DNA of 64,000 nt from a virus, in IMG/VR virus record IMGVR_UViG_3300037047_000121, one strand, 5' to 3'. This document shows, piece after piece, positions 9,852-36,572 of the stretch (position 1 is the first letter of the stretch; every line of letters begins with the position of its first letter). The translations under genes were made by a program, and so were the position numbers. Below the pieces are notes generated by a model that made no database searches, was not told the DNA's origin, and saw nothing but the letters and a program-made list of their open reading frames with translations.

Positions 9852-11304
9852 CATGTCGCTGATGAGTTTCCATGTCACGGGAGCTTTCCTGACCGAACAC
9901 TACCGCGAAATGGCGCTGGAAGATCACGACTCCGCCGTTCGGGGGCTGGCCGATTCCCTGGCTGGCATCCAGATCACGGATGTCTACGACGTGCTGGCGG
10001 GCAAAACCCGCCTGACCGGGGACTCCCGCGTCGGGGTCGATATCGAACCGGAAACCGACACGGCTCACGCCCAGGAGATGCACGAGCAGTTCGCAGGTCG
10101 ATGCCGCCTGCCCTTCACGGAACTCTGGCATCGTCCGGTGGCCGTCATCCCCATGGACTACAATTTCGCCCACAGGCGCTCCTTTTACTGTCATCACAGC
10201 GGCCGAATCCCGACAGGTGAGGCGACCGGCACCTGGGCACGGAGGCTGGTGCAGGATTTCATCCGCGCCGAGGGGCTCCTCGCTCCGAATGAGGTCACGA
10301 CGTTTCATGGCCCCATCAAGGACGAGGTGCTCCAGTTCCGTTGGTGGGGGGAGGCCGATCCCCGCCCCAACGACGTGAGCCTCATCGTCGTGTGGGAGCC
10401 ATGTTCCGCTCCCCCTCCGTGGATGAAACTCTCCTATCGCGTTCGGGACTACGAAGCGGCATGGGAGGACTTCCGGGACAACAGCGGGTACTACGAGGTG
10501 CGCAGGCTCGACCCCGTGGTGCGGGATCCTGTTTTCCTTGCTCCGGAACTGGAAAACGCTGGTGCCCGTGCCCGGGAGCGGGAAAAACAGGAAGAGAGGA
10601 AAGCGCAAGACCATACGAAGTGGGTCGAGCGTGAGGTCATCCGGATCAGGGAGGAGATTCAGCGGCGGATCGGGGACAATCCCGATGCATGGATGACGAT
10701 CATCTCGAAAAAGGGTCAGGAGTTCGTGGTCCCGAAGGATCCTTTTTACTGCTGGGCCATGTGGCGGGACAAGGACTTTTTCCCCATGATGCCCAAATGG
10801 GATCCCATCTCCCATCAGGGTGTCAAGATGGGAGATGACGACCCTTACCACACGGACTGGTATGTGGGGGCTGGACTCGACCCGCTCAAGGCATACCGGA
10901 CGTTTGGAGTCGATGACGAGGATCTCGACGACATGGAGGCCGCTTTCGACCGTGCCAAAGCTCGGGTGATCCAACAGTTTTCCAAGCTCCGCCCCAAGGG
11001 GGAGTTCAAAGCGATCCCGTACTTCTCGCAGGGGAATGCGAAGGGTGTGGCACTGCGCCCTCGCCCTGGTGATACCGTTCCGCAGGGAAGCATCATCGTG
11101 ATCCCTAACCTCAACACGGTCTGGTACCCCACAGCGGTCAATGCCTCGGTGGTACTGGCCGCCAATGGGGGCGAGATGGCCCATCTCGTGACGGAACTGC
11201 GCCCACTGGGTGTCTCTGTTTTCTACCTGCCCGATGCGCTCGAACGGATCCCTGAGGGAGTCATGGTCGAGGTGCATGAAAACGGGCTGGTCCTGTTGCT
11301 CTAA
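9852..11304 (+). CDS. hypothetical protein (484 aa)
   Basis: Track ORF 9847..11304; ATG 9852 after GGAGG; a partial promoter motif sits upstream. Confidence 0.6.
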
Positions 11305-11306
11305 TC

Positions 11307-11333
11307 GGGATCATTCTCAGCACCCTCAGAGTA
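11307..11333 (+). promoter_or_regulatory. GGGATCAT-N13-GAGTAG promoter-like motif
   Basis: Motif copy; downstream ATG 11355. Confidence 0.45.
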
Positions 11334-11354
11334 GTCCTCCTGAAAGGAGGACGC

Positions 11355-11984
11355 ATGTCCTACTACGATCAGTTCAAGGTCACGGTTCCCGAGGGGATCA
11401 GCGGCGACTGGAAGGTGGAGAAGTACGAGGTCTCCACCCAGGAGGCCAGTTTCGGGATGCTCCGCTCCATGGTGTCGGCCTGTGAGCGGGGGCGCTACGT
11501 TCCCGCGGGAACGTACAAGGGGCTGTGGCGGGGCAACACGATCGTGATGAGTGATACCCCGGACGAGATCCGGGATCACCTGCCTGCCATCCGCGCGGCC
11601 AACGGGCACTGCCTCGTGGGTGGGCTCGGGCTGGGCATGGTGGTCGCCGCAATGGCGCGCAAGCCCGATGTGACCAAGGTCACGGTGATCGAAAAGTCCC
11701 CCGACGTGATCGCTCTGGTCGGACCCCACCTGAAATCCCTGTTCGGGGACAAGGTGGAGATCATCGAGTCAGATCTCCTGACGTGGACGCCGCCGAAGGG
11801 ATCCAAGTACGGCGTCGCGTGGTTCGACATCTGGGACAACATGTGCGGAGACAACCTGCCGCAGATGGCGACCCTGAAGCGCAGGTACGCCCGCAGAACC
11901 TCGTGGAAAGGCTGCTGGGGCGAGTCCCAGACCAAGGCATACGTCCAGCGTTCCAGGAGGAACCGCAGCGGATGGGGGTGGTAA
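11355..11984 (+). CDS. Rossmann-fold protein, possible SAM-dependent methyltransferase
   Basis: HCLVGGLGLGMVVAAMA (GxGxG) followed by VTVIEKSPDV (acidic end of beta-2). Confidence 0.45.
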   Translation: MSYYDQFKVTVPEGISGDWKVEKYEVSTQEASFGMLRSMVSACERGRYVPAGTYKGLWRGNTIVMSDTPDEIRDHLPAIRAANGHCLVGGLGLGMVVAAMARKPDVTKVTVIEKSPDVIALVGPHLKSLFGDKVEIIESDLLTWTPPKGSKYGVAWFDIWDNMCGDNLPQMATLKRRYARRTSWKGCWGESQTKAYVQRSRRNRSGWGW

Positions 11985-14836: not shown

Positions 14837-15255
14837 CCACATGGGAGGATGCACCAAAGGACATGCAGGAGTTCGTGATGAATGAACTCTATCAGCGTGT
14901 CCGGTTCTACAGTCGTGAGGCACGAGCCGCGAAGGACGACGGCCTCCTGCACCTTCAGGACCGGATGATGAAGGCTTTTCAGGCCACTCGGACGGCGATC
15001 TCCACCTTGGGATATCCACAGGTATACTGCTGGGAATTACCAGCCCAGGACTCCACGGAACTGCCCAAATGGAGTGATGTTAACGATTTGTCTCGTGACG
15101 TCCTCTATCATGACATGGAAAGCGTCTGGGACGAGCTACAGGGTCAGTCCGACAAAGCAGTCCGTAGGGGACGTAGTCTCACTGCTGTACGGTTGCGTGA
15201 CGTTTCCGAGGTCCTGAAAAATGCCATCAGGCATCTCCAAGCACACGAGGGCTAG
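14833..15255 (+). CDS. hypothetical protein
   Basis: ATG 14833 (GGAATGA overlap) within track ORF 14812..15255. Confidence 0.45.
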   Translation: MTTWEDAPKDMQEFVMNELYQRVRFYSREARAAKDDGLLHLQDRMMKAFQATRTAISTLGYPQVYCWELPAQDSTELPKWSDVNDLSRDVLYHDMESVWDELQGQSDKAVRRGRSLTAVRLRDVSEVLKNAIRHLQAHEG

Positions 15256-15256
15256 C

Positions 15257-16090
15257 ATGCAGATTTTGACTCTGGGACATGGGGGCGGCGTTCCTGTTCC
15301 CAATCTGGGGAACACCAACTTCGCCCTGATCATCGGTCGGCACCAACCGGGATTGACGACGGAGGAGATCCTCCAGCGGCACAAATTCTGGCTGCTCGAC
15401 TGTGGGCCGGAAACCATCCGCCTGCTGGCTGAAACGGACTCTTTCAAAAATCTGGTGGGGGTCATCATCACCCACGTCCACGCGGATCACTCGGGGGGTC
15501 TGGCCAGCCTCGTGTGGCGGATGCGTTTCGTGGAGAAACGCAAGTTCCATCTGATTTTCTGCTCTGACCTTGCTCCTCTGCTTGAGGCACAAACGATCGA
15601 GCTTCAGTACCTGAACCCGGCACAGGAAAAAGCCTGGGCTGATGAGCTTGTTGCGCATCACAACCTGTGGAACTTTACGATCCCACATTTCATCCCAAGG
15701 GCAGGGGCAGGACCTCTCGGGACATATCTTGCAGGGTTCAAAGACTGGGAGGTGCTCCTGCACCCCGCGAATCACAACTGCGGAGTGTTCCCGGCTTTCA
15801 GTGTGGAATTGATACGGGAAAACCCCAAAACACACATCCTGTTCACTGGGGACACGGCGTTTCCATCGGATGTCTGGCACCAGAGTCTCTATTTGACATA
15901 CCACGACGTTCAGACATATAATTTAGGGGACGGCTTCGAAGTACATTGTCCGTACCAGAAAATAGTCAAAACTATCCCTCGGGAGCATCGGTCAAAAGTA
16001 CTGCTGTGTCATACGGCGAAACCCAAAAATGCCGATGCCGACGGGTTCCGTTGGGCGCACAAAAACCACCTAGAGGTTATCTCAGACTGA
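15257..16090 (+). CDS. metallo-beta-lactamase-fold hydrolase
   Basis: ITHVHADHSGG (HxHxDH motif); ATG 15257 within track ORF 15221..16090. Confidence 0.75.
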   Translation: MQILTLGHGGGVPVPNLGNTNFALIIGRHQPGLTTEEILQRHKFWLLDCGPETIRLLAETDSFKNLVGVIITHVHADHSGGLASLVWRMRFVEKRKFHLIFCSDLAPLLEAQTIELQYLNPAQEKAWADELVAHHNLWNFTIPHFIPRAGAGPLGTYLAGFKDWEVLLHPANHNCGVFPAFSVELIRENPKTHILFTGDTAFPSDVWHQSLYLTYHDVQTYNLGDGFEVHCPYQKIVKTIPREHRSKVLLCHTAKPKNADADGFRWAHKNHLEVISD

Positions 16091-25317: not shown

Positions 25318-25857
25318 ATGGCCAAAATCAAAAACCCCTGGAAAGATGGTCGTGACGCCGACGTCATGGACGAACGGTGCGTCGGGCGTCCCTGTCTCCA
25401 CGTCGGGGAGCACAAGGGTACCTTCGTCCAGGGTCGGGGCTACACGTCGTACTTCAAAGACCCGAAACTTGTTTGTATGCATCGGCATCTCCATGGGTGT
25501 CCACAGCCGATCCCTGACGCTGAGCCCGAGAGGATCCGTTGCTGCCTGAATCCGGATTTCCCAGCGAAGGGCAAGGCCCGGAAACAGCGCTGCCGTTCAT
25601 GCGGGGCATGGGCAGAGGGCTGGGTACTGGAGATCCGCCGGGGTTTACCCGTCTTGCCGCATGTCGAGTGCAAGCATCGGGATGTGCTGACGGAATACGA
25701 CGACCTGTTCCGCAAAAGCATTGTCCGATGCCGAAACTGCGGGCTGCGGTGGTACCACGTGCCCAAGCCGATGGAGCCTGGGCGGACGTTCAAAGAGATG
25801 CTAGACGAGTGGTCTGCCCGGATCCACGCTGTTTTGCGGGGGGACAACGGGGAATGA
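25318..25857 (+). CDS. Cys-rich zinc-finger protein immediately upstream of CRISPR leader 1
   Basis: ORF track; RCRSCGAW and RCRNCGLRW CxxC pairs; RBS GGAGGAG. Confidence 0.55.
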   Translation: MAKIKNPWKDGRDADVMDERCVGRPCLHVGEHKGTFVQGRGYTSYFKDPKLVCMHRHLHGCPQPIPDAEPERIRCCLNPDFPAKGKARKQRCRSCGAWAEGWVLEIRRGLPVLPHVECKHRDVLTEYDDLFRKSIVRCRNCGLRWYHVPKPMEPGRTFKEMLDEWSARIHAVLRGDNGE

Positions 25858-26049
25858 TGCGAGCAGTTCAGTGGTGCCGAAAACCCCAGAGCCGCTCGCA
25901 GAGGGTAAAGTTCTTTGAAAACCCGGACGTTAGACGAGATCGGACTCACCTGAGACCTCGAAAATGGGCACACAGCCAGTGTGAGTCGGCTGGACTGCTC
26001 GAAGTAGGGGTGCTAAGGTGTTGAAATCAGTGGGCGCCTCGATGGTGCC
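25858..26049 (+). promoter_or_regulatory. CRISPR array 1 leader (homologous to array 2 leader)
   Basis: Shares GCGAGC..GCCG.AAAACCCC..CCGCTCGC hairpin-like segment, GTTCTTTGA and CTCGAAAATGGG blocks with 33005..33203. Confidence 0.45.
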
Positions 26050-26603
26050 CTTACAATCCCTGCTGAGCCTCTAAGGTTTGGCAACAGACTCGGACTGGGT
26101 CTCATGCTCACTGAGCGCCACCCTTACAATCCCTGCTGAGCCTCTAAGGTTTGGCAACTGCAAATCCCGGCCGCGAAATCGCGCGCGGGGATCCGGGACG
26201 CTTACAATCCCTGCTGAGCCTCTAAGGTTTGGCAACGAGGCATCCTGCGTGCCCCAGAGCGCCGTGCCGTCACCTTACAATCCCTGCTGAACCTATAAGG
26301 TTTGGCAACGTATGCGCGCTAGGCGGATAGTCAATCTGCTTTCCGTCCTGACAATCCCTGCTGAACCTATAAGGTTTGGCAACAGGCAGTACGAGAAGCG
26401 GTACGCGAAGTGGTGGCCGTCTTACAATCCCTGAAAAAACCTCTAAGGTTTAGCAACACCTGGGGCAGGATGCGCTCGGCCATCTGCTGTCCGACTTACA
26501 ATCCCTGAAGAACCTCTAAGGTTTGGCAACTGGGAGGACGGCCGCCGTGTCCGCTTGCTGCGAAACGCTTACCATCCCTGCCGAACCCAGGGGGTTTGGC
26601 AAA
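26050..26603 (+). CRISPR. CRISPR array 1: 8 repeats, consensus CTTACAATCCCTGCTGAGCCTCTAAGGTTTGGCAAC (36 bp), spacers 36-37 bp
   Basis: Repeats at about 26050, 26123, 26201, 26274, 26348, 26421, 26495, 26568; the last four are progressively degenerate (likely leader-distal end). Confidence 0.9.
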
Positions 26604-26654
26604 GTGCCCGGCTGACCCGCCAGAGGATCCGCGGAACGACGATCCCTTACCCGT

Positions 26655-26690
26655 CCCCAGCTAAATCGCTGGGGTCTTCAGATTTTTCTT
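26655..26690 (+). terminator. hairpin CCCCAGC-TAAATC-GCTGGGG followed by TCTTCAGATTTTTCTT
   Basis: Stem-loop plus T-rich tract directly after the last repeat; candidate terminator for the pre-crRNA. Confidence 0.4.
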
Positions 26691-26718
26691 GACCCCAGCG
26701 GTTTGTCCGCTGTATCCT
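26689..26718 (+). promoter_or_regulatory. sigma70-like candidate promoter TTGACC-N18-TATCCT for the cas operon
   Basis: Seen in sequence about 45 nt upstream of cas6 ATG; the fragment ACAATCCCTG of the repeat recurs just before the cas6 RBS. Confidence 0.3.
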
Positions 26719-26762
26719 ACCCCTCGACTAAGTGGTACAACAATCCCTGTGGAGAGGTTCCA

Positions 26763-27344
26763 ATGCGAAGTTTCGATTTCCCACTCAGCGGGGTGATTCC
26801 CCAGGATCATGGCTACTACCTGTTCGCCGGGCTCTGCTCCCTGTTGCCCGAGTTGCATGGGCGACGGGGGTTCCAGGTCGCTCCCGTCCGGGGTACCCGG
26901 CGGCGGGATGGGAATCTCCTGCTGGATCACAAGTCGATCCTCAACGTCCGGGGGATTACCGCAGAGGAAGCTCTGCGGATCCAGCACACGGCTTTCGAGA
27001 TCCCGACGGGAACTGTCCTCATCGGAGCAGCCTCCATCCGTGAGCATCGGGGAGGTTCGGTCCTGGCCTCCCGTCAGGTGGTGCTTCGCGGCATCCTCGA
27101 CAAGGAAACCTTCGAGAAGGCTCTCCTGGAGGCACTTCCCTCGGGGGTCGAAAGCTCCGTCGGCCGGGAGCACGTCACGATTCTGCCTGAGCGCAGCGGC
27201 AAGCCCCGTCAGGTGATGCGGGGCTGGTCCGTACGTCTTTCGGGACTGACCGAAGAGCAGTCCCTCGACATCCAGAGCCGGGGGATCGGCTGGGAGCGTC
27301 AGATGGGCTGCGGCGTGTTCTACAGCCCCCGGTACACACGATGA
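26763..27344 (+). CDS. cas6: Cas6 endoribonuclease (Cas6e-like)
   Basis: ATG 26763 after GGAGAGG. The C-terminal glycine-rich loop GIGWERQMGCG (GhGxxxxxGhG) resembles the GIGPAKSMGCG loop of CasE. About 194 aa. Lies next to a CRISPR array. Confidence 0.7.
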   Translation: MRSFDFPLSGVIPQDHGYYLFAGLCSLLPELHGRRGFQVAPVRGTRRRDGNLLLDHKSILNVRGITAEEALRIQHTAFEIPTGTVLIGAASIREHRGGSVLASRQVVLRGILDKETFEKALLEALPSGVESSVGREHVTILPERSGKPRQVMRGWSVRLSGLTEEQSLDIQSRGIGWERQMGCGVFYSPRYTR

Positions 27345-29662
27345 TTTTCTACGCCAAAGGCAAAGAGCGGAGGAACGGACGGGAGTTCTACCCCCGGGGT
27401 TTCACGCTGGAAGGACACACACGAGAGTGTGCCGAAATGGCACTGTTCCTGCTGACGAAGGTTCCGTTCGGGCGTCTCCTTCACCAGAAAATGGCACTTC
27501 AGATCCCGTACGAGGATTTCGTCCGTGTCTGCCTGCTGGCAGTGATCCTGCACGACATCGGCAAATCCGGCCCGGAGTTCTTTGGCATGATCGAGTCTCA
27601 GATCCTGGGGCTGGACCGAAGGAAGCAGAACTACCGACATGAGATCCTCTCCGCCATCATCCTTTTCCGTTTGTGGAAGTGGCTTGTCAAGGCAGCAGGA
27701 AACAAAAGATATGCCAAGTACGTGTTGTCCGCTGTCCGAGGGCACCACATCAAAACGGAAAAGGAACTGAACGACTCTTCCGAGAAAATACGGGAATGGC
27801 GTGCTGTCGACGTCATCCAGATCTACAATGATATCTTGGCTCAGTACGGGTTTCCACACATCACGGATGCCCCCTGGAAAAACAACGCGGTAAAACTTTC
27901 CTCCCGACAGGTTGCTCTGGCCAATCGTATTTTCCGGGAGGACGAGCATTTCAGCGAAGATCAAATGGCGGAAACGCCGGAGTCACTCGCTGTCAAATTC
28001 GTACTGGTGCTCTCGGACACGTTGGGGTCGCTCTCCTGGAAAAGCCCTGAACAGCAGCCCGGGTTCAACGACACGATCAAGGATTTCGTGCGACAGATCT
28101 ATGCCCCACGAAACATCGACTACAAGTCCCGCATCCAGGGGTGGGATACGATCCAGCACACATTGCGGGATTTTCAGAAGGACATCCAGACCGTGGAGGG
28201 GGATGCCATCCTGCAAGCATTCTGCGGGGGAGGAAAAACGGCAGCGGTACTTTTGTGGGCATCAAGGTGTCCCCAGATTCCGCTTGTCATCACGACTCCC
28301 ACTACGGGAACAAGTTCCCAGCTTTTCCAGGACTACGGCCGGATCGATCAGGACTTCAATCGGCACTCCCGTGCAAGTGTGGACTCCCTGATCCGGTGGC
28401 TGGCAAAACAGAACACAAACGTCCCTGACTTTCTGAACCCGTACAATGAAGCGAAGGAGGTGGGGGAAAAAGAGACCCCGGAGAAAGCGTGGGAAAAGGA
28501 AGAGCAAGAGGCTGCGGAAGAGTCTCTCGCGGTGGCGGACACGTTCGCGTCTTGTCTCAAAGACGTCACGTTTGCCACGGTGGATCAGGTGCTGGGGGTC
28601 ATGAGCTACTCCCGTAAATCGATCCTCTGGCTGCTCTACCTCGTAATGGCGCAGATGGCTTTCGACGAGTTCCACGCCTATGACGAGGAACTGACCCGCT
28701 GGCATCAGCAATTTCTGCGGTTTTTCCCGGGAATCCGCACTCTGAATCTGAGTGCCACGATTGCGGAACAGCAGCGCCGACGGGTACTGGATGTTCGACC
28801 TCACGCCCAGTTCATAACCACCAAGGAGTCGGACGGAGACAAACCGAGGTACCAGCTTCACCTTCTGGGCAGTGAACAGGAAGCCCTCACCCATTTCCGG
28901 GATGCCCGCAAGGTACTCTGGATTTCCAACAAGGTGGCTGACTGCCAGCGAGTGGCAGCGTTGTTTGACGACGCCTTGTGCTACCATGCTCGGTTCCGAT
29001 ACTACGACCGAGTGGCCATCCACGCAGAGATGGTGGCAGCATTCCGAGACAAGCAGGAACTCCGGGAAATCCGGGCTGTTACCACCCAGGTTGCGGAGAT
29101 GTCTTTGGACATTTCCGCCATGCTTGGGATCTTCGCGCTGTGTCCGTTTGTCTCATTGATCCAGCGACTCGGCCGAATCAACCGGATGCTGGAATACGGC
29201 GTGGCGGATGTTTACATCTACCGCCCGGAACGTCCGTCCCCTTACGTCATGGTACGAACGGACAAAGCGGTTGAGGAGGTCTTCCGTTCGTGGGAGGACG
29301 CTATCCGTCCGCTGCTCGGTCGCCCCGTTTCTCAGCGGGAACTGATGGAGCACGCGGCGTCCCTCCCCGCGGGAGTGCCCCCGGATCTGAACGTGTATCA
29401 ACCGATGATCGCAACAGCCCGAAGATCGCTGCGGGACGGGGGTACCTACAGCATCGTGTTGCAGCAGGATTGGGAGAAAAACCCCAAGAGATTCGAGGAC
29501 TCCCGAATTGTGAGTGCCTACGAGATTCCGACCAATGAGTACGATCTGGAGGAAGCTCTGAAGGCCAAACGGGAAGGACGGGAAGTTCACCACCGGCTGG
29601 TACTGCCCCGTGAATATGATGCGCGTCTGGGGCTTTTTCCTAAAAAGGGGATCATCCGCTGA
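27341..29662 (+). CDS. cas3: Cas3 HD nuclease-helicase
   Basis: HD domain (GHTRE, ILHDIGK, YRHEI). Helicase motifs are Walker A CGGGKTAA, DExH DEFH, SAT (LSATIAE) and motif VI QRLGRINR. ATGA overlap with cas6. Confidence 0.9.
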   Translation: MIFYAKGKERRNGREFYPRGFTLEGHTRECAEMALFLLTKVPFGRLLHQKMALQIPYEDFVRVCLLAVILHDIGKSGPEFFGMIESQILGLDRRKQNYRHEILSAIILFRLWKWLVKAAGNKRYAKYVLSAVRGHHIKTEKELNDSSEKIREWRAVDVIQIYNDILAQYGFPHITDAPWKNNAVKLSSRQVALANRIFREDEHFSEDQMAETPESLAVKFVLVLSDTLGSLSWKSPEQQPGFNDTIKDFVRQIYAPRNIDYKSRIQGWDTIQHTLRDFQKDIQTVEGDAILQAFCGGGKTAAVLLWASRCPQIPLVITTPTTGTSSQLFQDYGRIDQDFNRHSRASVDSLIRWLAKQNTNVPDFLNPYNEAKEVGEKETPEKAWEKEEQEAAEESLAVADTFASCLKDVTFATVDQVLGVMSYSRKSILWLLYLVMAQMAFDEFHAYDEELTRWHQQFLRFFPGIRTLNLSATIAEQQRRRVLDVRPHAQFITTKESDGDKPRYQLHLLGSEQEALTHFRDARKVLWISNKVADCQRVAALFDDALCYHARFRYYDRVAIHAEMVAAFRDKQELREIRAVTTQVAEMSLDISAMLGIFALCPFVSLIQRLGRINRMLEYGVADVYIYRPERPSPYVMVRTDKAVEEVFRSWEDAIRPLLGRPVSQRELMEHAASLPAGVPPDLNVYQPMIATARRSLRDGGTYSIVLQQDWEKNPKRFEDSRIVSAYEIPTNEYDLEEALKAKREGREVHHRLVLPREYDARLGLFPKKGIIR

Positions 29663-29675
29663 CCTACCTGAGTAG
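29648..29675 (+). promoter_or_regulatory. GGGATCAT-N14-GAGTAG promoter-like motif inside the 3' end of cas3
   Basis: Motif copy immediately upstream of the large-subunit gene. Confidence 0.4.
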
Positions 29676-29701
29676 GTAGCCCGATGTGTTTTGGAGGATT
29701 G

Positions 29702-31465
29702 ATGGAAACCTGGGTCTACGATCTGAACACGGAATTCGACCCGGTCATTCGAGCCGGGATTCACGGGCTGGCTCTGGTGCTCGGGCATGCGGAAGGCAAC
29801 CCGCTTTTCCCGGCAGTGCACCAGGAGCCCGGGGTTCTGGAGTGGGAACTGACGGACACCACGCTCACCGTCCGTTTCCGGGACGAGGAGCCGCTCAACA
29901 GGATGATGCAGGGCATGTTCGGAACATGCCCCAATGGAGCCCTTCTGCATCCCGCCCGTGAAGTGACCCCCGGAAAGAACGGTTACTATGCCACAGCGCA
30001 GTGCCACCGTGGCATCATCCAGGTTTTCTCCGGGGGTATGAGTTCCACCAAGCGGACCAAATCTCTGGGTGAAGCCTCCCTGCCTGATGCCCTGAAAAGC
30101 TACAGGGCAAACATAACGGTCGGGAAGGCTTCCGGAGTAGTTCGGAAACGTGAGGGGAAAGAGCCCCTTCGCTACGACATCGAGATCACCCCGCACTACC
30201 CGCTGCCTCGTATCGAGGTCGACGGGAAAAGCGAACTGGTCATCAAGAACCACTTCGCTTTCCAGCAGAAGGGCAAGAAGAAGGTTTCTGAGGACAAGGG
30301 TGGCATGACGGGAGGGTTTCACCCGGCATACAACGAATGGAACAAGCGAAGCATCGATGCACCGAACCGCATCCGTTTCGCAGTGGCGTTCAGCCCTCTC
30401 TCCTATGTCTTTACCAGATGGCGCAAGGGTGCCGTTCAGGGGAAGGCAGGAGACAAGCAGAAGGGATGTGTCGGAGTCAGCCTCGATTTCGAGACATTTT
30501 CCCGGGCTTGGGGTTTCCACCGTCGGTACGGACTGAGTATGCACCCCAACCGCACGGAAGAGGTTTTTCAGAACCTCTTCCGCGTGGATGCAGACTACCC
30601 GGTGGCTGCGGTGGCACTCCTGACGCTACTGGAGGCTGATGTCGGGCGTTCCTATCACGTAGTGCAGTGTCCGGATAACGGCAAACCGTCTGCGCATGAG
30701 ATCCCCTTCGAGGGCGTGGACGGTTTGCTGCTCAAGTTCCGACAGGCTCTGCGTCAGGAAATGGTCGAAGGCGGAGTTGAGTTCCTACACCGCATCAAGA
30801 GCCCCTGGCTCTTCCCCCAGGGCAAGGCTCAGCGAGAGTCTCTGTTTGACGTACTCTGGAACAACGTCGGTTTCGGGCAGCCCTGGTACCGCGGACTTTT
30901 CGTCCGCAAGGGCATGCCCAGCAGCAATCTGCGTCGCGTGATGAGGGGCATCGTGAACATTTTCGGTACGGAACAGCACAAGCGGCTTCATCAGGAACTG
31001 CGGAACATGCGGAACCTTCTGGTTCACGCCAAGGCGGAGACCCGGGCACGTCGAGGGGACGCGCCCCCGATTCAGAGGGACTGGGAGCAGGTGGATCAGG
31101 ACATGGTCTCCGTCCACTTCCGCACGGCCCACGTTTTCGGAGACGTGATGGGGGCGCTGGCTCACGCCAACGACCAGATCATCCGCCGCGGAAAGCGCCC
31201 GCCCCTGTCTGCGGACTCCGTCATGCTCGTTCGCGAAATGGCGCAGAGCGATCCGCGCGGAACGGCGGACCTGCTGTCCATCCTGTTTGCGACCGAGACC
31301 CCGGCCGACATGGAACGCCGCGTCGCCAACAGGGCAAAGAAGAACGGTGCGGGGGTGCCCACCCCCGTGCCCACGGAAAACACCGAGGAGCCGAGCGATT
31401 TCGGTTTCTCGGAACTGGATCCGAACGTCATGGAAGAAGAGGAAGAGGAAGAGATCAATGCGTGA
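29702..31465 (+). CDS. cas8: Cas8-like large subunit (possibly with C-terminal Cas11-like region)
   Basis: 587-593 aa ORF between cas3 and cas7 in the Cascade position. ATG 29702 has a GGAGGA RBS; the alternative ATG is at 29684 (track). No separate small-subunit gene is present. Confidence 0.55.
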   Translation: METWVYDLNTEFDPVIRAGIHGLALVLGHAEGNPLFPAVHQEPGVLEWELTDTTLTVRFRDEEPLNRMMQGMFGTCPNGALLHPAREVTPGKNGYYATAQCHRGIIQVFSGGMSSTKRTKSLGEASLPDALKSYRANITVGKASGVVRKREGKEPLRYDIEITPHYPLPRIEVDGKSELVIKNHFAFQQKGKKKVSEDKGGMTGGFHPAYNEWNKRSIDAPNRIRFAVAFSPLSYVFTRWRKGAVQGKAGDKQKGCVGVSLDFETFSRAWGFHRRYGLSMHPNRTEEVFQNLFRVDADYPVAAVALLTLLEADVGRSYHVVQCPDNGKPSAHEIPFEGVDGLLLKFRQALRQEMVEGGVEFLHRIKSPWLFPQGKAQRESLFDVLWNNVGFGQPWYRGLFVRKGMPSSNLRRVMRGIVNIFGTEQHKRLHQELRNMRNLLVHAKAETRARRGDAPPIQRDWEQVDQDMVSVHFRTAHVFGDVMGALAHANDQIIRRGKRPPLSADSVMLVREMAQSDPRGTADLLSILFATETPADMERRVANRAKKNGAGVPTPVPTENTEEPSDFGFSELDPNVMEEEEEEEINA

Positions 31466-32348
31466 CAACTACCTGTCGATCGTCATCGTGACCAAGCCGT
31501 TCCTGGCCGCCAACGCGCGTGGGGAACTGGTCGGGGGGCACACCTCCGGACTCCAGTTGATCACGGTCGGGAACAAGGTCTACACCGTGATCAACGGCTA
31601 CTCCCTGGCCTACGCTCTCCGGCAGGCGCTGGAGGACCAGGGGGCCACGGTGTGGCGCCGGGTCGATCGGGACACCGTGACCGGGTTCGACTACAACGGC
31701 AGCCCCGTCCCCCTGTCCTACCCGGGCGACCGTTTCGAGTTCCACGACACCGCCCTGCGCGGTTTCATGGACACCCAGGGTGAGGCGGGCAAGAAATGCT
31801 CCCTGATGGAGATCTCCTGCGCGGTCTCGACCGAGCCGTACCACGGCGACGAGGGGTTCTCGATCGGGCACAAGAACAAGATCGCGGCTGCCACGACCAA
31901 CGCCCCGGTCACGGCCCCGGACACGGCCAACACCGCAGACGACACCGACCGTAGCGCGAAGAACCCGTTCCAGTACCAGCGCAGCTACACCCGGACGACC
32001 TTCGTCCTGACCTTCGACCTGCGGGCGCTCTCCTGTGACGTCGCACGGGAGTCGATCCACATGGTGACGACGGCGCTGGCGGAACTCCAGGTGGGCGGCA
32101 GTCAGGCGGCCAACAAGTCCACGCTGATCGCGGAGTGGGTGGCCTGGAACACCCACCCCACGGCGGGAACGGCGGGTCTGGCCTTCTCGGTCGCGGACAC
32201 GAAGGGCTGGCCGCTGGACGCCCCCCTGACCGAGGCCCAGATCCGGGCCGGGCTGAATCGGGCGAAGCGGGGGTACCGGCTGAGCCAGAACGTCGACGAT
32301 CTCGTGGACGACCTGCTGACCCGCGGGATCGCCAAGGAGATGGTGTGA
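31458..32348 (+). CDS. cas7: Cas7 backbone subunit
   Basis: ATG 31458 overlapping the cas8 stop. N-terminus LSIVIVTKPFLAANARGEL and GYSLAYALRQ resemble Cas7e (LISHSPSCLNRDD...SSQSLKRAVR). About 297 aa. Confidence 0.7.
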   Translation: MRDNYLSIVIVTKPFLAANARGELVGGHTSGLQLITVGNKVYTVINGYSLAYALRQALEDQGATVWRRVDRDTVTGFDYNGSPVPLSYPGDRFEFHDTALRGFMDTQGEAGKKCSLMEISCAVSTEPYHGDEGFSIGHKNKIAAATTNAPVTAPDTANTADDTDRSAKNPFQYQRSYTRTTFVLTFDLRALSCDVARESIHMVTTALAELQVGGSQAANKSTLIAEWVAWNTHPTAGTAGLAFSVADTKGWPLDAPLTEAQIRAGLNRAKRGYRLSQNVDDLVDDLLTRGIAKEMV

Positions 32349-33004
32349 TGGAGCCGATCGTGTCCCTCGGAGTCTGGGTGGCCTCGGGACACTACCCGGC
32401 ACCTGGGTCGAAGCAGTTGATGGCACAGGTGCCGAGTTTCCCGGTCGCTCCCCCGTCGACGGTCGTGGGGTTTCTGGGCAGTCTCTGCGGGCAGTTCCCG
32501 AAGGACATGCACAAGGCGGTGGGTGCGTCGGAGTTTGCCTATGGCTGGCTCCGACGACCCGCTGGTCGGGGCATCGTCATGTTCAAGGACCATGTGAACG
32601 CCTCGTTCCAGGGCCCCTTGAAAGAGGCGATGGCCCGGCTCACCAAAAAGAAGAACGGCGAGTCGACCCGGCCGGTCTTGCGGGAAATCTTCTACGACAT
32701 GGACTACCGGATCGTCGTGCGGGGCCCCTACGCGGAGCGCGTTCAGCAGGCACTGGAGCACGACGAGCGCCGGGGGATTCTCTACCTGGGTGGTTCTACC
32801 GACATCGTTCACACGGTGGACGCCGAGTGCGACGGCTCCAGCGAGTGGGTCGTCCCGGTGGATGGGCTGATCGGGTTCCGCCTTCCCGTGAACACGGGAC
32901 GTGGGGCATCGACGATCAGCGCGCAGTACCGGGTGTTCCGGTTCAACCCCGCAACGCCAGAGATCCCGGACAAGGCATGGATGTCCCTGTCCGCTGCCTT
33001 CTAA
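32348..33004 (+). CDS. cas5: Cas5 subunit
   Basis: ATG 32348 (TGATG overlap). VPSFPVAPPSTVVGFLGSLCGQ matches the Cas5 N-terminal glycine-rich motif (PTRSGLLGLLGACLG in CasD). About 219 aa. Confidence 0.7.
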   Translation: MEPIVSLGVWVASGHYPAPGSKQLMAQVPSFPVAPPSTVVGFLGSLCGQFPKDMHKAVGASEFAYGWLRRPAGRGIVMFKDHVNASFQGPLKEAMARLTKKKNGESTRPVLREIFYDMDYRIVVRGPYAERVQQALEHDERRGILYLGGSTDIVHTVDAECDGSSEWVVPVDGLIGFRLPVNTGRGASTISAQYRVFRFNPATPEIPDKAWMSLSAAF

Positions 33005-33007
33005 CAT

Positions 33008-33059
33008 CGGGTTTGCGAGCGGTGCCATGACCCCCTAAAACCCCGTCACCGCTCGCAAA
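33008..33059 (+). terminator. 16-bp stem hairpin GGGTTTGCGAGCGGTG...CACCGCTCGCAAACCC right after cas5 stop
   Basis: Seen in sequence; part of the array 2 leader and homologous to a weaker hairpin in leader 1. Confidence 0.4.
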
Positions 33060-33060
33060 C

Positions 33061-33203
33061 CCGCAAGAGGAGGAGTTCTTTGACAATCCGAGAGCTAATG
33101 AAAACCAGAAGCAACAAAACCACCCCACTGACAGTGTGGAAACCGCCACCGCTCGAAAATGGGGTACTAACCCCCGGAAATGAGTGGGCTTTTAGAGGGT
33201 GGG
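33061..33203 (+). promoter_or_regulatory. CRISPR array 2 leader (A-rich; shares GTTCTTTGA and CTCGAAAATGGG blocks with leader 1)
   Basis: Sequence comparison of the two pre-array regions. Confidence 0.45.
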
Positions 33204-35812
33204 GTAACAATCCCTTCTGACCCCAAAAGGTTTAGCCACGAGAAGCTCGTCGAGCCGTCCGACAACCGGGTACTCGTAACAATCCCTTCTGACCCCAAAA
33301 GGTTTAGCCACAAAACCACTGTGCGGTACACCGCAGAGCAACTGCCCATGGTAACAATCCCTTCTGACCCCAAAAGGTTTAGCCACACGCAGGCGCAGGT
33401 CGAGGAGGTGATCGCAGGGCTGGTAACAATCCCTTCTGACCCCAAAAGGTTTAGCCACGGGGCAGAAGTGGTTGACCCTGGAAGACGCCGTGTGTAACAA
33501 TCCCTTCTGACCCCAAAAGGTTTAGCCACAGGGTCATCGGCACTCGCCCCCGTCGCTGCCCCGAGTGTAACAATCCCTTCTGACCCCAAAAGGTTTAGCC
33601 ACTAGATGTTGCGCAGCCGAATGTCTGACAATCCCGGGGTAACAATCCCTTCTGACCCCAAAAGGTTTAGCCACATGGTCGGTTCCGAATGGGACGTTCC
33701 GGCCGAAACCCGTAACAATCCCTTCTGACCCCAAAAGGTTTAGCCACGAGGGAGAGCCGATGGGCGCGGCCGCCAGGGAGCGCGGTAACAATCCCTTCTG
33801 ACCCCAAAAGGTTTAGCCACTGCCTGGGGGGACAACATGGCCTGGGGTGACCCGAAGTAACAATCCCTTCTGACCCCAAAAGGTTTAGCCACTGGCTACC
33901 GGCGAGTACAGATTGTCCATGGTGTCGTGTAACAATCCCTTCTGACCCCAAAAGGTTTAGCCACGCGACGCTGCGGGGCTCCCTGTCATCCGGCACGGAG
34001 GTGTAACAATCCCTTCTGACCCCAAAAGGTTTAGCCACCTCCCTCGCGGCCGCGGCATGGCTCCACGGTCGGTGGTAACAATCCCTTCTGACCCCAAAAG
34101 GTTTAGCCACCTCGACGAACTCATGGATGCCGTCGGTACCTGACCACGTTCCAATCCCTTCTGACCCTAGAGGTTTAGCCACACTATGCTGAATCGGTGC
34201 AGTGGAAGCACGCCGCGGCTGGCAACAATCCCTTCTGACCCCAAAAGGTTTAGCCACGACGGGAGGGGCAAGAGGATCCGCTACGGGTGCATCTGGTAAC
34301 AATCCCTTTTTACCTCTAACGGTTTGGCAACAGTAGCCCCGCGGGACGTGCCGGTCCCAGGCCGCCTTCGTAACAATCCCTTCTTACCTCCGATGGTTTA
34401 GCCACCCTATCAGCGGGCATGTTGCTCGCGGTGACAGTGACATAACAATCCCTTCTGACCTCTGATGGTTTAGCCACAGGCAGGCGGCGCCGCAAGCCGT
34501 CCAGTACTCCTGGTAACAATCCCTTCTGACCTCAAAAGGTTTAGCCACGAGCAGTACAGGGGCTGGGAGTGCGAGGAGGACGAGTCGTTACAATCCCTTC
34601 CGTCCTCTGATGGTTTAGCCACAACCTCCTGGCGAACCGCAGCGACCCCAAGCCGCTGGTAACAGTCCCTTCTGACCTCAAAAGGTTTGGCAACACGCAC
34701 ACCCCGTTCGCGTGCCTCCCGTTCGGCCAGTGACAAATCCCTTCTGACCCTCTAATGGTTTAGCCACCCATCGACGACCTCCACTTCGTCAGTCCCGTAG
34801 GTCTCGGAACAATCCCTTCTGACCAGCAACGGTTTAGCAACGGCCCACAGGGTGCTGGGAATTCGACTGCATTCTGGATGACAATCCCTTCTGACCTCTG
34901 ACGGTTTAGCCACCCATGTCGTTTCCCCCAGCGGCGCACCAGCGCCATGTTCGTAACAATCCCTTCTGATCCCAAAAGGTTTAGCCACTCCTTCGGGTGA
35001 TTTCGCCTTCTCCGCGGACGGTGGGTAACCGTCCCTTCTTACCTCAAATGGTTTAGCCACGTCTGCGCCTGTGTGACGCGCGCCTCGATGACGCGGTAAC
35101 AATTCCTTCTTACCTCTGAGGGTTTAGCCACGAACGTTCGGTTGATCTCCGGCGCGAGTTAGAAATCGTAGCAATCCCTTCTGACCTCTGATGGTTTAGC
35201 CACGGAATAACGGCGGCGCTGTCGGAGCACATGTCTGTGTAACAATCCCTTTTTCCCAAAGGGTTTAGCCACACCGGGTCGTTCGGTCGGTTTGTCGGTA
35301 CGTTTAACAATCCCTCTGACCATCCGAGGTTTAGCCACCCGTAGTACGGGGACACGCCTCCGGCCTTGATCTGGTAACAATCCCTTCTGACCTCTGATGG
35401 TTTAGCCACTCCTCATCCACGTACCAGACGTGCGTGGGAGGCCATAACAATCCCTTCTAGCTCATTGCGTTTAGCTACAACCACAGCCACAGCGTGCATC
35501 GGAGCACGAGACGTAATACGTCCGCAGCACTTTCCCGTCTCATCCCCAGAGGTTTGGTAACGTACCGCAAGTACTCGATCAGTGGATTTGTGCCGGGCTA
35601 CAATCCCGTTTTGCCTCAAGGTTTGGTAACGGTTCACAGACGGGTTTTACCATCCCGACTTTCCTACAAGGTTTGGCAACTGCGCGAGCCGGACCAGAAC
35701 TTGGCTCATGTCGCGAGGTTCAATCCCTGCTGACCATTTCGTGGTTTGGCAATAGTCGGGGGGTTGGAAAACCCAAGGACACAATCCCTGCTTAAACTCT
35801 AAACCAAAGGAA
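33204..35812 (+). CRISPR. CRISPR array 2: about 34 repeat units, 36-bp repeat GTAACAATCCCTTCTGACCCCAAAAGGTTTAGCCAC, spacers 36-39 bp
   Basis: About 15 near-identical units run from 33204 to about 34260. The next about 20 units carry a second sub-consensus (...CTGACCTCTGATGGTTTAGCCAC) and many point variants, some ending GTTTGGCAAC as in array 1. The final units (35530-35812) are highly degenerate. Confidence 0.9.
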
Positions 35813-35816
35813 AACC

Positions 35817-36257: not shown

Positions 36258-36534
36258 TCGGGGTAGGATGATCATGCCGTGGGGTCCCGTCGGGAACCGC
36301 CGCGACCGTAACCGAGAGCGCCTTCCATTGCCATGAGGAGCGTGTGGGGCACCGCTGGCGTTCTCGGGGATCTTCTTCGCTGCCGGGGGTAGTGGGGTCG
36401 GCATGGTCCTGCCCCTGGTGGAAACGCGGTGCCATCTCCGAGGGCTCGGCTGCCGGAGCCCTTCAAAGCAACGCTCCACTGGCGCCATCTGCGTACAGGG
36501 GACGGTAATGGTGCCGTCCCCTGTACGGGGTGGA

Positions 36535-36572
36535 TTTACAATCCCTGACAACTCGTTTGAGTTTGGCAATCA
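36535..36572 (+). repeat. orphan degenerate CRISPR-like repeat TTTACAATCCCTGACAACTCGTTTGAGTTTGGCAATCAC
   Basis: Resembles the array 1 repeat (ACAATCCCTG...GTTTGGCAA); about 700 bp beyond the end of array 2 in a 400-bp non-coding gap. Confidence 0.45.

Follow-up and report, generated by a model that had tools for sequence, protein, structure and literature searches.

How far can a CRISPR repeat (one of the short palindromic repeats that are clustered and regularly interspaced) change while it is served by one Cas6 and one Cascade? The question is raised by a locus in a 64,000-nucleotide (nt) stretch of virus record IMGVR_UViG_3300037047_000121, hereafter the window, in which two arrays on the same (+) strand flank five cas genes in the order cas6-cas3-cas8-cas7-cas5. 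The module, an interference-only CRISPR-Cas of a type I-B 'MYXAN'-like kind, sits on a mobile element with little annotation. We favor, at a probability of roughly 0.65, a reading in which its two arrays share one ancestry, the repeat of array 2 drifted in place, and the single Cas6 would still cut both repeat types.

The arrays were delimited by Hamming scans and a hand-anchored MAFFT table of units, and both qualify as CRISPR arrays, having 36-nt repeats, a period of 71-78 nt and unique spacers of 35-42 nt. Their parts are as follows.

26050..26603, + strand: array 1, 8 units of 36-37 nt, spacers of 37-42 nt
33204..34110, + strand: leader-proximal block of array 2, 13 identical units GTAACAATCCCTTCTGACCCCAAAAGGTTTAGCCAC, unique spacers of 35-39 nt
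34148..35409, + strand: mosaic tail of array 2, units 14-31, three interleaved recurring variants
35444..35815, + strand: decayed oldest units of array 2, units 32-37, with the array-1-type states CCCTGCT and GGTTTGGYAAY
36535..36570, + strand: solitary degenerate array-1-type repeat TTTACAATCCCTGACAACTCGTTTGAGTTTGGCAAT, beyond a glycosylase gene

In both arrays the leader-proximal units are uniform and decay grows with distance from the leader. Units 1-3 of array 1 all read exactly CTTACAATCCCTGCTGAGCCTCTAAGGTTTGGCAAC, while units 4-8 are progressively older variants with A18 for G18, the last of them decayed. Aligned without gaps, the consensus repeats of the two arrays are identical at 27 of 36 positions and differ at positions 1, 3, 13, 18, 21, 22, 23, 31 and 34, as expected from the original prediction of two arrays with related yet distinct repeats. 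That prediction also described array 2 as about 15 uniform units followed by about 20 others. Its composite nature stands, although the exact split does not: the array has 37 units in all (33204-35815), divided into 13 and 24, with unit 15 one base off GTAACAATCCCTTCTGACCCCAAAAGGTTTAGCCAC.

The tail is anything but shapeless. Three variants, B (..ACCTCTGATGG..), C (..ACCTCAAAAGG..) and A (..ACCCCAAAAGG..), are interleaved between unit 31 and unit 15; units 16, 22, 23 and 26 are intermediate forms, and the chimeric units 16 and 21 join an array-2-type 5' half to an array-1-type 3' end. Relative to the modern repeat, the same substitutions recur among the 15 standard-length tail units: C20T in 11, A22T in 7, A23G in 7 and A25T in 6. 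Such recurrence was never attained in 20,000 simulations of independent decay, and random decay of the tail is rejected. The recurring sub-consensus that had been proposed for it is therefore genuine. CTGACCTCTGATGGTTTAGCCAC is exact in units 18, 28 and 31, the same four substitutions are found in unit 20, and units 17, 24 and 27 each lie one step away. Two further expectations were borne out by the unit table, namely that sporadic tail units would have array-1-type ends (units 16, 21 and 35 end GGTTTGGCAAC; units 33, 34 and 36 end GGTTTGGTAAC or GGCAAT) and that the last units, 32-37, would be strongly decayed; the spacers among these are truncated or irregular, at 15-45 nt. Across distinct standard-length units, positions 10-11, 19, 26-30, 32-33 and 35 are invariant and positions 4-12 vary very little; the variable positions cluster at 20-25, 1, 3, 13, 18, 31 and 34.

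In which direction did the repeats change? The six most leader-distal copies—units 33-37 and the solitary repeat, which has 12 mismatches to the array 1 repeat and 16 to that of array 2—carry array-1 states wherever they can be read, with positions 9-15 reading CCCTGCT and the 3' end GGTTTGGYAAY. Because the oldest units of array 2 are array-1-like, the array 2 repeat is derived and array 1 keeps the ancestral type. Both arrays stem from one repeat type near today's array 1 repeat, and array 2 is a fossil record of its repeat's stepwise drift. Read toward the leader, the center of the repeat passes from the array-1 type GAGCCTCTAAGG through GACCCTCTAATGG (unit 22) to the tail consensus GACCTCTAATGG. 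From there one branch leads to variant B, GACCTCTGATGG (units 18, 20, 28 and 31), and the other runs through GACCTCAAATGG (unit 26) and GACCTCAAAAGG (units 19 and 21) to GACCCCAAAAGG, the center of units 1-13 and 15 and, with one extra change (C18T), of unit 25. The 3' end has a series of its own, from GGCAAC through AGCAAC (unit 23) to AGCCAC.

Spacer integration duplicates the leader-proximal repeat. A mutation in that repeat would be inherited by all later units, setting a uniform young block over older variants. Serial copying alone predicts ordered blocks, so the interleaving, the chimeras and the outcome of a four-gamete test, in which each of the four allele combinations is present at 10 of the 36 informative site pairs of array 2, require recombination or gene conversion, or else recurrent mutation. 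Simple serial sweeps are rejected by these incompatibilities as the sole cause of the tail. Recombination or gene conversion among arrays that bear variants in related genomes may have given rise to the interleaved and chimeric units; recombination of arrays is a known, usually minor process (Kupczok et al. 2015, PMC4524480). Uniform near the leader, decayed far from it and mosaic beyond what serial acquisition gives, array 2 resembles known cases of trailer-end degeneration and array recombination, of which that study is one example. Unlike the usual one or two degenerate terminal repeats, however, its heterogeneous tail takes up 24 of 37 units, with discrete recurring variants and every intermediate between the two repeat types. 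Array evolution here is ordinary in kind, though unusually well preserved.

The leaders tell of the same common origin.

25858..26049, + strand: leader 1, distal hairpin TGCGAGC...GCTCGCA at 25858-25900 with AAAACCCC in its loop
33005..33203, + strand: leader 2, 15-bp distal hairpin at 33010-33061 with AAAACCCC in its loop

Leader 1 carries GTTCTTTGA at 25910-25918, CTCGAA at 25957 and 25998, and GAAATCAGTGGGC at 26023-26035; leader 2 carries GTTCTTTGA at 33075-33083, CTCGAAAATGGG at 33152-33163 and GAAATGAGTGGGC at 33177-33189. GTTCTTTGA (25910, 33075) and CTCGAAAATGGG (25957, 33152) occur at only these two places in the 64 kb, and GAAAT[CG]AGTGGGC (26023 and 33177) is likewise unique to the two leaders. 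Their local alignment scores 26, against 9.0 +/- 1.3 and a maximum of 15 in 1000 shuffles and 590 control windows, and the GCGAGC...GCTCGC hairpin folds at -20.6 kcal/mol (z-score -2.2) in leader 1 and at -28.0 kcal/mol (z-score -8.2) in leader 2. The leaders do, then, share blocks and a hairpin beyond chance, as had been claimed, and arrays 1 and 2 each carry their own copy of one ancestral leader. The same boxes are found in the related loci L005, L006, L011, L016, L018, L020 and L024. An order common to at least seven loci runs from the distal hairpin through TCTTTGAC and a second GCTCG(C)AA box to a GAAAT..GTGGG block, which lies some 25 nt ahead of the first repeat in leaders of the family. 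The distal hairpin is strong in leader 2, L018 (10580-10630) and L020 (13396-13449) and weaker in leader 1. It stands right after the upstream stop codon, with AAAACC(CC) in the loop, a CGCTCG box in the 3' arm and no U-tract, and could serve to bind protein or as an element akin to a terminator.

How old is the two-array layout? A relative from other samples, represented by the contigs L005 and L006, has a Cas6 and a Cas8 that are 42% and 26% identical to the proteins of the window, and shares its layout: array 1, cas6, cas3, cas8, cas7, cas5, array 2. Its arrays, too, have distinct repeats, position 13 being G in array 1 and T in array 2 as it is in the window, and its array 2 is built of blocks. 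These are old 'c', middle 'b' and new 'a' in L006; 'a' lies 3 changes from 'c' and 7 from 'b', so the block order c-b-a is no line of descent. Since the two arrays of the window have no spacer in common and a distant relative shows the same layout, the split between arrays is old and not a recent duplication. Of the proposal that a single ancestral array was duplicated or recombined, common ancestry is upheld by the homology of repeats and leaders, and recombination or recurrent mutation by the 10 incompatible pairs of 36; a recent duplication is what falls away. Array 1 of the relative differs between its two samples (L005 7393-7853, L006 1-663) by at least three leader-proximal units, and the first L005 repeat is a chimera of the young and the fourth L006 repeats. 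The difference would suit polarized acquisition but does not count as proof of it, because it is equally well explained, chimeric repeat included, if the L005 lineage lost units by a deletion between repeats.

What did the drift do to the repeat as an RNA? The array 1 repeat forms a 10-bp hairpin (positions 12-21 with 25-34; -11.7 kcal/mol, z-score -3.0), and its older form with A18 for G18 folds equally well. Across 15 repeat variants of 8 loci this family hairpin has 91.3% of cells paired and 5 of 10 pairs changed on both sides; its covariation is 0.437 against 0.173 in shuffles (none of 500 reaching it), and pairing collapses when partner columns are slid, figures to be read in the light of a structure derived from one of the tested sequences and of sequences that are related. 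The inner stem in particular is exchanged among relatives: ACAGC/GCUGU in L020, ACCCU/AGGGU in L011, AUCUC/GAGAU in L024 and AGCCY/RGGCU in L006, whose composite array 2 keeps its inner stem by U-A to C-G exchanges through U.G intermediates. The L020 repeat, GTTACAATCCCGGCTGACAGCGTTAGCTGTTGGCAAC, has flanks as in the window and a fully swapped inner stem.

The array 2 repeat of the window has taken another path. Its modern form folds at -3.4 kcal/mol (z-score -0.3) and has no stable hairpin; with variants B and C the range is -3.4 to -3.5 kcal/mol and z-scores about 0, no better than shuffles, although a residual 4-bp helix (G16-C19 with G26-U29) is possible. Adding these three variants to the family alignment lowers pairing to 83.6%, each of them breaking 12-34, 13-33, 18-28 and 21-25. 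A register shift in the center has destroyed the inner stem and, together with the changes at G13, G31 and A34, leaves the modern repeat without four of its ten pairs. The original prediction placed the central differences in a presumed stem-loop and suggested looking there for compensatory changes. The differences are not of that kind: four of the nine break covarying pairs and another replaces U.G by U-A, while the loop and the 5' tail take two each. Compensatory change between the two repeats is rejected. The 3' end has changed as well, the family, with repeats of 36-37 nt, ending UUGG[C/A]AAC and the array 2 repeat UUAGCCAC instead. A search of Rfam returned no CRISPR-DR or other family match at E <= 0.1.

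In other systems, Cas6 cuts 8 nt from the 3' end of the repeat. By analogy, the presumed 8-nt 5' handles of the CRISPR RNAs (crRNAs) would be UUGGCAAC from array 1 and UUAGCCAC from array 2, which differ at -6 and -3.

Which enzyme, then, would face these repeats? The cas genes, with protein lengths in amino acids (aa), are these.

26763..27344, + strand: cas6, 193 aa, Cmx6 type; Pfam Cas6, E 4e-29
27341..29662, + strand: cas3, 773 aa, fusion of HD nuclease and helicase; Pfam Cas3_HD and Cas3-like_C_2 (E 4e-19)
29684..31465, + strand: large subunit, cas8/DevT-like and very divergent, 593 aa
31458..32348, + strand: cas7, DevR-like, 296 aa; TIGR01875 DevR family and Cst2/DevR, both under cut-off
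32348..33004, + strand: cas5, 218 aa; CRISPR_cas5 N-terminal domain

There is a single cas6 at the locus and none among the 82 other open reading frames (ORFs) of the window; with one Cas6 gene only, several repeat variants face one processing enzyme, and on this point the original prediction was right. Cas6 scores 99.3 bits to NCBIfam TIGR02807 (cas6_cmx6), just above the equivalog cut-off of 98.85. Its relatives are mostly annotated as type I-MYXAN Cas6 of Planctomycetes, and none was found in IMG/VR by single-sequence or profile search. Cas3 scores 53.2 for cas3_HD (cut-off 43.45) and 95.9 for cas3_core, slightly under the cut-off of 102.45. Cas7 remains under cut-off for both the DevR family (E 1.3e-9, 37.5 bits against 67.3) and Cst2/DevR (E 3e-7). 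Cas5 reaches 18.7 for the N-terminal domain (cut-off 17.8), the same score for Cmx5/DevS (cut-off 111.5) and a match under cut-off for Cas5b, and is 28% identical to the Novipirellula protein in the same position (E 2e-7). The large subunit matches no Pfam or NCBIfam profile, with a weak precomputed DevT_N match on record; it is 28% identical to Novipirellula DevT over 114 aa (BLASTP, E 4e-6) and, over 436 aa, shares 26% identity with its positional counterpart in L006 (E 4e-29). Array 2 begins 200 nt past the cas5 stop codon, with no cas4, cas1 or cas2 between, and Pfam and PADLOC profiles found none of the three among the 82 other ORFs. Adaptation enzymes might act in trans, from elsewhere on the element or from the host.

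That one Cas6 serves both arrays is plausible. Enzymes that process several repeats are known. For example, Thermus thermophilus Cas6A/B acts on repeats R1 and R3, and Thermus Cas6 recognizes two sites, a hairpin and a single-stranded 5' segment (PMC3902920), a model that the 5' segment and hairpin of the present family would fit. Likewise Synechocystis Cas6-1 and Cas6-2a are promiscuous in vitro (PMC5741207). Here the pattern of constant and variable positions agrees with two-site recognition, for which the candidate parts would be the invariant ones, the single-stranded 5' segment ACAATCCCT together with A17, C19, G26-G27-U28-U29-U30, G32-C33 and A35, through which the single Cas6 could still cut both repeat types. 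The likeness has its bounds: the alternative repeats of the Thermus and Synechocystis cases keep a similar stable hairpin, whereas the larger and apparently younger array here has lost most of it.

Several points weigh against this reading. Cleavage by Synechocystis Cas6-1 and Cas6-2a required a stably formed repeat hairpin (PMC5741207), and by that precedent a hairpin-poor repeat could be a poor Cas6 substrate. Three assumptions are carried over from other Cas6 systems: that this Cas6 cuts array 2, where it cuts, and that the handle has 8 nt. The handles differ at exactly -3 and -6, and in the type I-B system of Haloarcula hispanica A-3C and U-6G were the handle mutations most damaging for priming (PMC6582329), so that one Cascade accepting both handles may not be taken as given. 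Recombination is inferred from incompatibilities inside one array, where recurrent mutation is possible too, and the extra L006 units could equally stem from a deletion in the L005 lineage. Current activity is unproven: we found no self-target in the window, no spacer match in any fetched relative, none at E <= 0.1 among 50,697 phage records, and no exact match in IMG/VR to three 24-nt spacer cores. Finally, the families found in the 64-kb window include no capsid, portal or terminase, which bears on the phage nature of the carrier considered below.

Among the alternatives, the first makes a non-functional relic of the bulk of array 2, or at the least of its 24-unit tail; processing would no longer be called for, and the variants would be products of neutral decay that nothing has to recognize. 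Arrays are well known to have degenerate repeats at the trailer end, and units 32-37 with their irregular spacers, the tail variants without a stable hairpin and the want of protospacers in the collections searched all agree with it. We nevertheless hold it unlikely. The same substitutions recur beyond anything in the decay simulations, and units 14-31 keep their flanks ACAATCCCT and GGTTT and a spacer length of 35-39 nt around a variable center, which suggests continued constraint. Nor is loss of the hairpin limited to old units, since the modern repeat of the 13 uniform units is itself hairpin-poor.

Alternatively, array 2 may be serviced by other machinery—a host or co-resident Cas6, Cascade and Cas1-Cas2—while array 1 serves the element's own Cascade; the array 2 repeat would then match that of the host or co-resident system. 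The 64 kb hold no cas1, cas2 or cas4, yet array 2 has 13 identical, presumably recent units, and its repeat deviates from the family in both hairpin and 3' end (UUGG[C/A]AAC). Moreover, use of host Cas proteins has been suggested for huge phages whose repeats resemble those of the host (PMC7162821). This alternative is nonetheless improbable. As the oldest units of array 2 show, its repeat arose in place out of the type that the element itself carried, its leader is homologous to leader 1 and to the leaders of the whole family, and the invariant 5' segment and GGTTT core are common to both arrays. Exact-pattern scans of 185,579 species genomes and of viral and metagenome collections, furthermore, found no array with either repeat; the sole pattern matches were two single-copy chance matches inside genes (L001 and L002).

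A related idea is that one cas operon feeds two functionally distinct guide pools, with array 1 giving classical hairpin crRNAs that keep Cas6 bound and array 2 giving hairpin-poor crRNAs with another handle. The crRNAs of array 2 might then be made, loaded or extended by other machinery (host Cas6, Cascade or Cas1-Cas2) or act in a differently composed effector. We give this idea little credence; if true, the distinct array 1 and array 2 repeats of the distant relative would reflect selection and not drift. Lastly, a composite pattern produced by a metagenome assembler mixing array variants of different strains might be feared for repetitive arrays from such a source, but it is scarcely credible when a separate Joint Genome Institute (JGI) contig (L003, 11,344 bp, both arrays) matches the full locus at 100% identity, array 1 is identical in a Logan contig (L004), all spacers are unique with regular unit spacing, and an independent relative from other samples has the same kind of composite array.

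Decayed repeats are also scattered around the arrays, and one of them lies beneath the start of cas6.

26735..26764, + strand: repeat-like remnant GTACAACAATCCCTGTGGAGAGGTTCCAAT, covering the cas6 ribosome-binding site and start codon
35817..36257: pyrimidine-dimer DNA glycosylase gene; Pyr_excise, E 9e-19

The translation signals of cas6 seem to be built out of a decayed repeat unit (GTACAACAATCCCTGTGGAGAGGTTCCAAT), which was grouped with a solitary repeat at 36518-36547 (repeat family D7), and a second repeat-like remnant lies between array 1 and cas6 at 26640-26675. The glycosylase gene seems to have been inserted into, or captured by, the ancient tail of array 2; in the relative L005 there is a Pyr_excise gene too, but it stands 5 kb upstream of array 1. 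A promoter scan found no sigma-70 consensus promoter in either leader, and the sole promoter-like site, TTGACC-18-TATCCT at 26689-26718, lies between array 1 and cas6. Just upstream of leader 1, at 25318-25857, is a 179-aa cysteine-rich ORF with several CxxC pairs, zinc-ribbon-like and with no family match.

What carries the locus? The element is phage- or plasmid-like: a large phage, probably, with a Planctomycete-like host. Two ORFs of the window, one of them a radical SAM protein, have homologues in phages of 175-220 kb; a NikA-like match would suit a plasmid rather than a phage, and megablast of the locus against phage records gave no match. The rest of the window consists of dense short ORFs without known families and a few genes that look accessory to a mobile element: a topoisomerase IB with a catalytic core of eukaryotic type, the radical SAM protein, a metallo-beta-lactamase and the NikA-like match. 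Other families seen are a cREC_REC domain, a Band 7/flotillin protein and its YqiJ-like partner, a nucleoside 2-deoxyribosyltransferase-like protein and two GNAT acetyltransferases. At 15221-16090 the window encodes a 289-aa protein of metallo-beta-lactamase fold (PHROG metal-dependent hydrolase, E 1e-11), which is probably the source of a weak Pfam match to Anti-Pycsar Apyc1 (4e-5) and may be an anti-defense cyclic-nucleotide nuclease. Among the relatives, a locus in L020 (10001-13397) and L021 has the order cas6, large subunit (454 aa), cas7, cas5, and no cas3 adjoins it. Its surroundings are phage-like, with numerous short ORFs, an M78 peptidase and a RecA-like ATPase. L006 carries a peptide chain release factor (PCRF/RF-1 domains) at 10668-11363, 1.5 kb downstream of its array 2; a release factor gene is unusual on a mobile element, though reported in large phages.

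Where does the module stand among known systems? With its Cmx6-type Cas6, its HD-helicase Cas3 and a Cas7 and a Cas5 whose likeness to DevR and DevS stays under cut-off, it resembles the type I-B 'MYXAN' systems of Myxococcus and Planctomycetes (Cmx6/Cas6, Cas3, Cmx8/DevT, DevR/Cas7, DevS/Cas5), and shares with them a spacer length near 36 nt and 36-nt repeats with a hairpin just ahead of a 3' tail that ends ..GCAAC or ..GCAC. It differs in a large subunit that is recognizably DevT-like at its N-terminus only and in a phage- or plasmid-like carrier instead of a chromosome. The cellular system of Novipirellula aureliae (L022), for instance, comprises cas3, cas6, devT, devR, cas5, a cas4-cas1 fusion, cas2 and one array, whereas the window has neither the fusion nor cas2 and places an array on each side of cas6-cas3-cas8-cas7-cas5. 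An interference module with arrays, no Cas1, Cas2 or Cas4 in the window and a phage-like neighborhood recall the adaptation-less CRISPR-Cas systems of huge phages (Al-Shayeb et al. 2020, PMC7162821). The arrays of those phages are usually compact, with a median of six repeats, unlike the 37 units of array 2, and the phage identity of the present element is putative.

The locus is a natural experiment in how far a CRISPR repeat can change under one Cas6 and one Cascade. It presents an active-looking array of 13 units that lacks the covarying hairpin of its Cas6 family and has changed positions -3 and -6 of the presumed handle, the two that mattered most in the one type I-B system with mutagenized handles, and its preserved intermediates are a ready panel of substrates for learning what a Cmx6-type Cas6 and a type I-B Cascade recognize. 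If a single Cas6 does cut both repeat types, the locus would illustrate known principles and not a new mechanism. It is also a tangible example in which to ask how arrays grow and recombine on mobile elements that lack adaptation genes.

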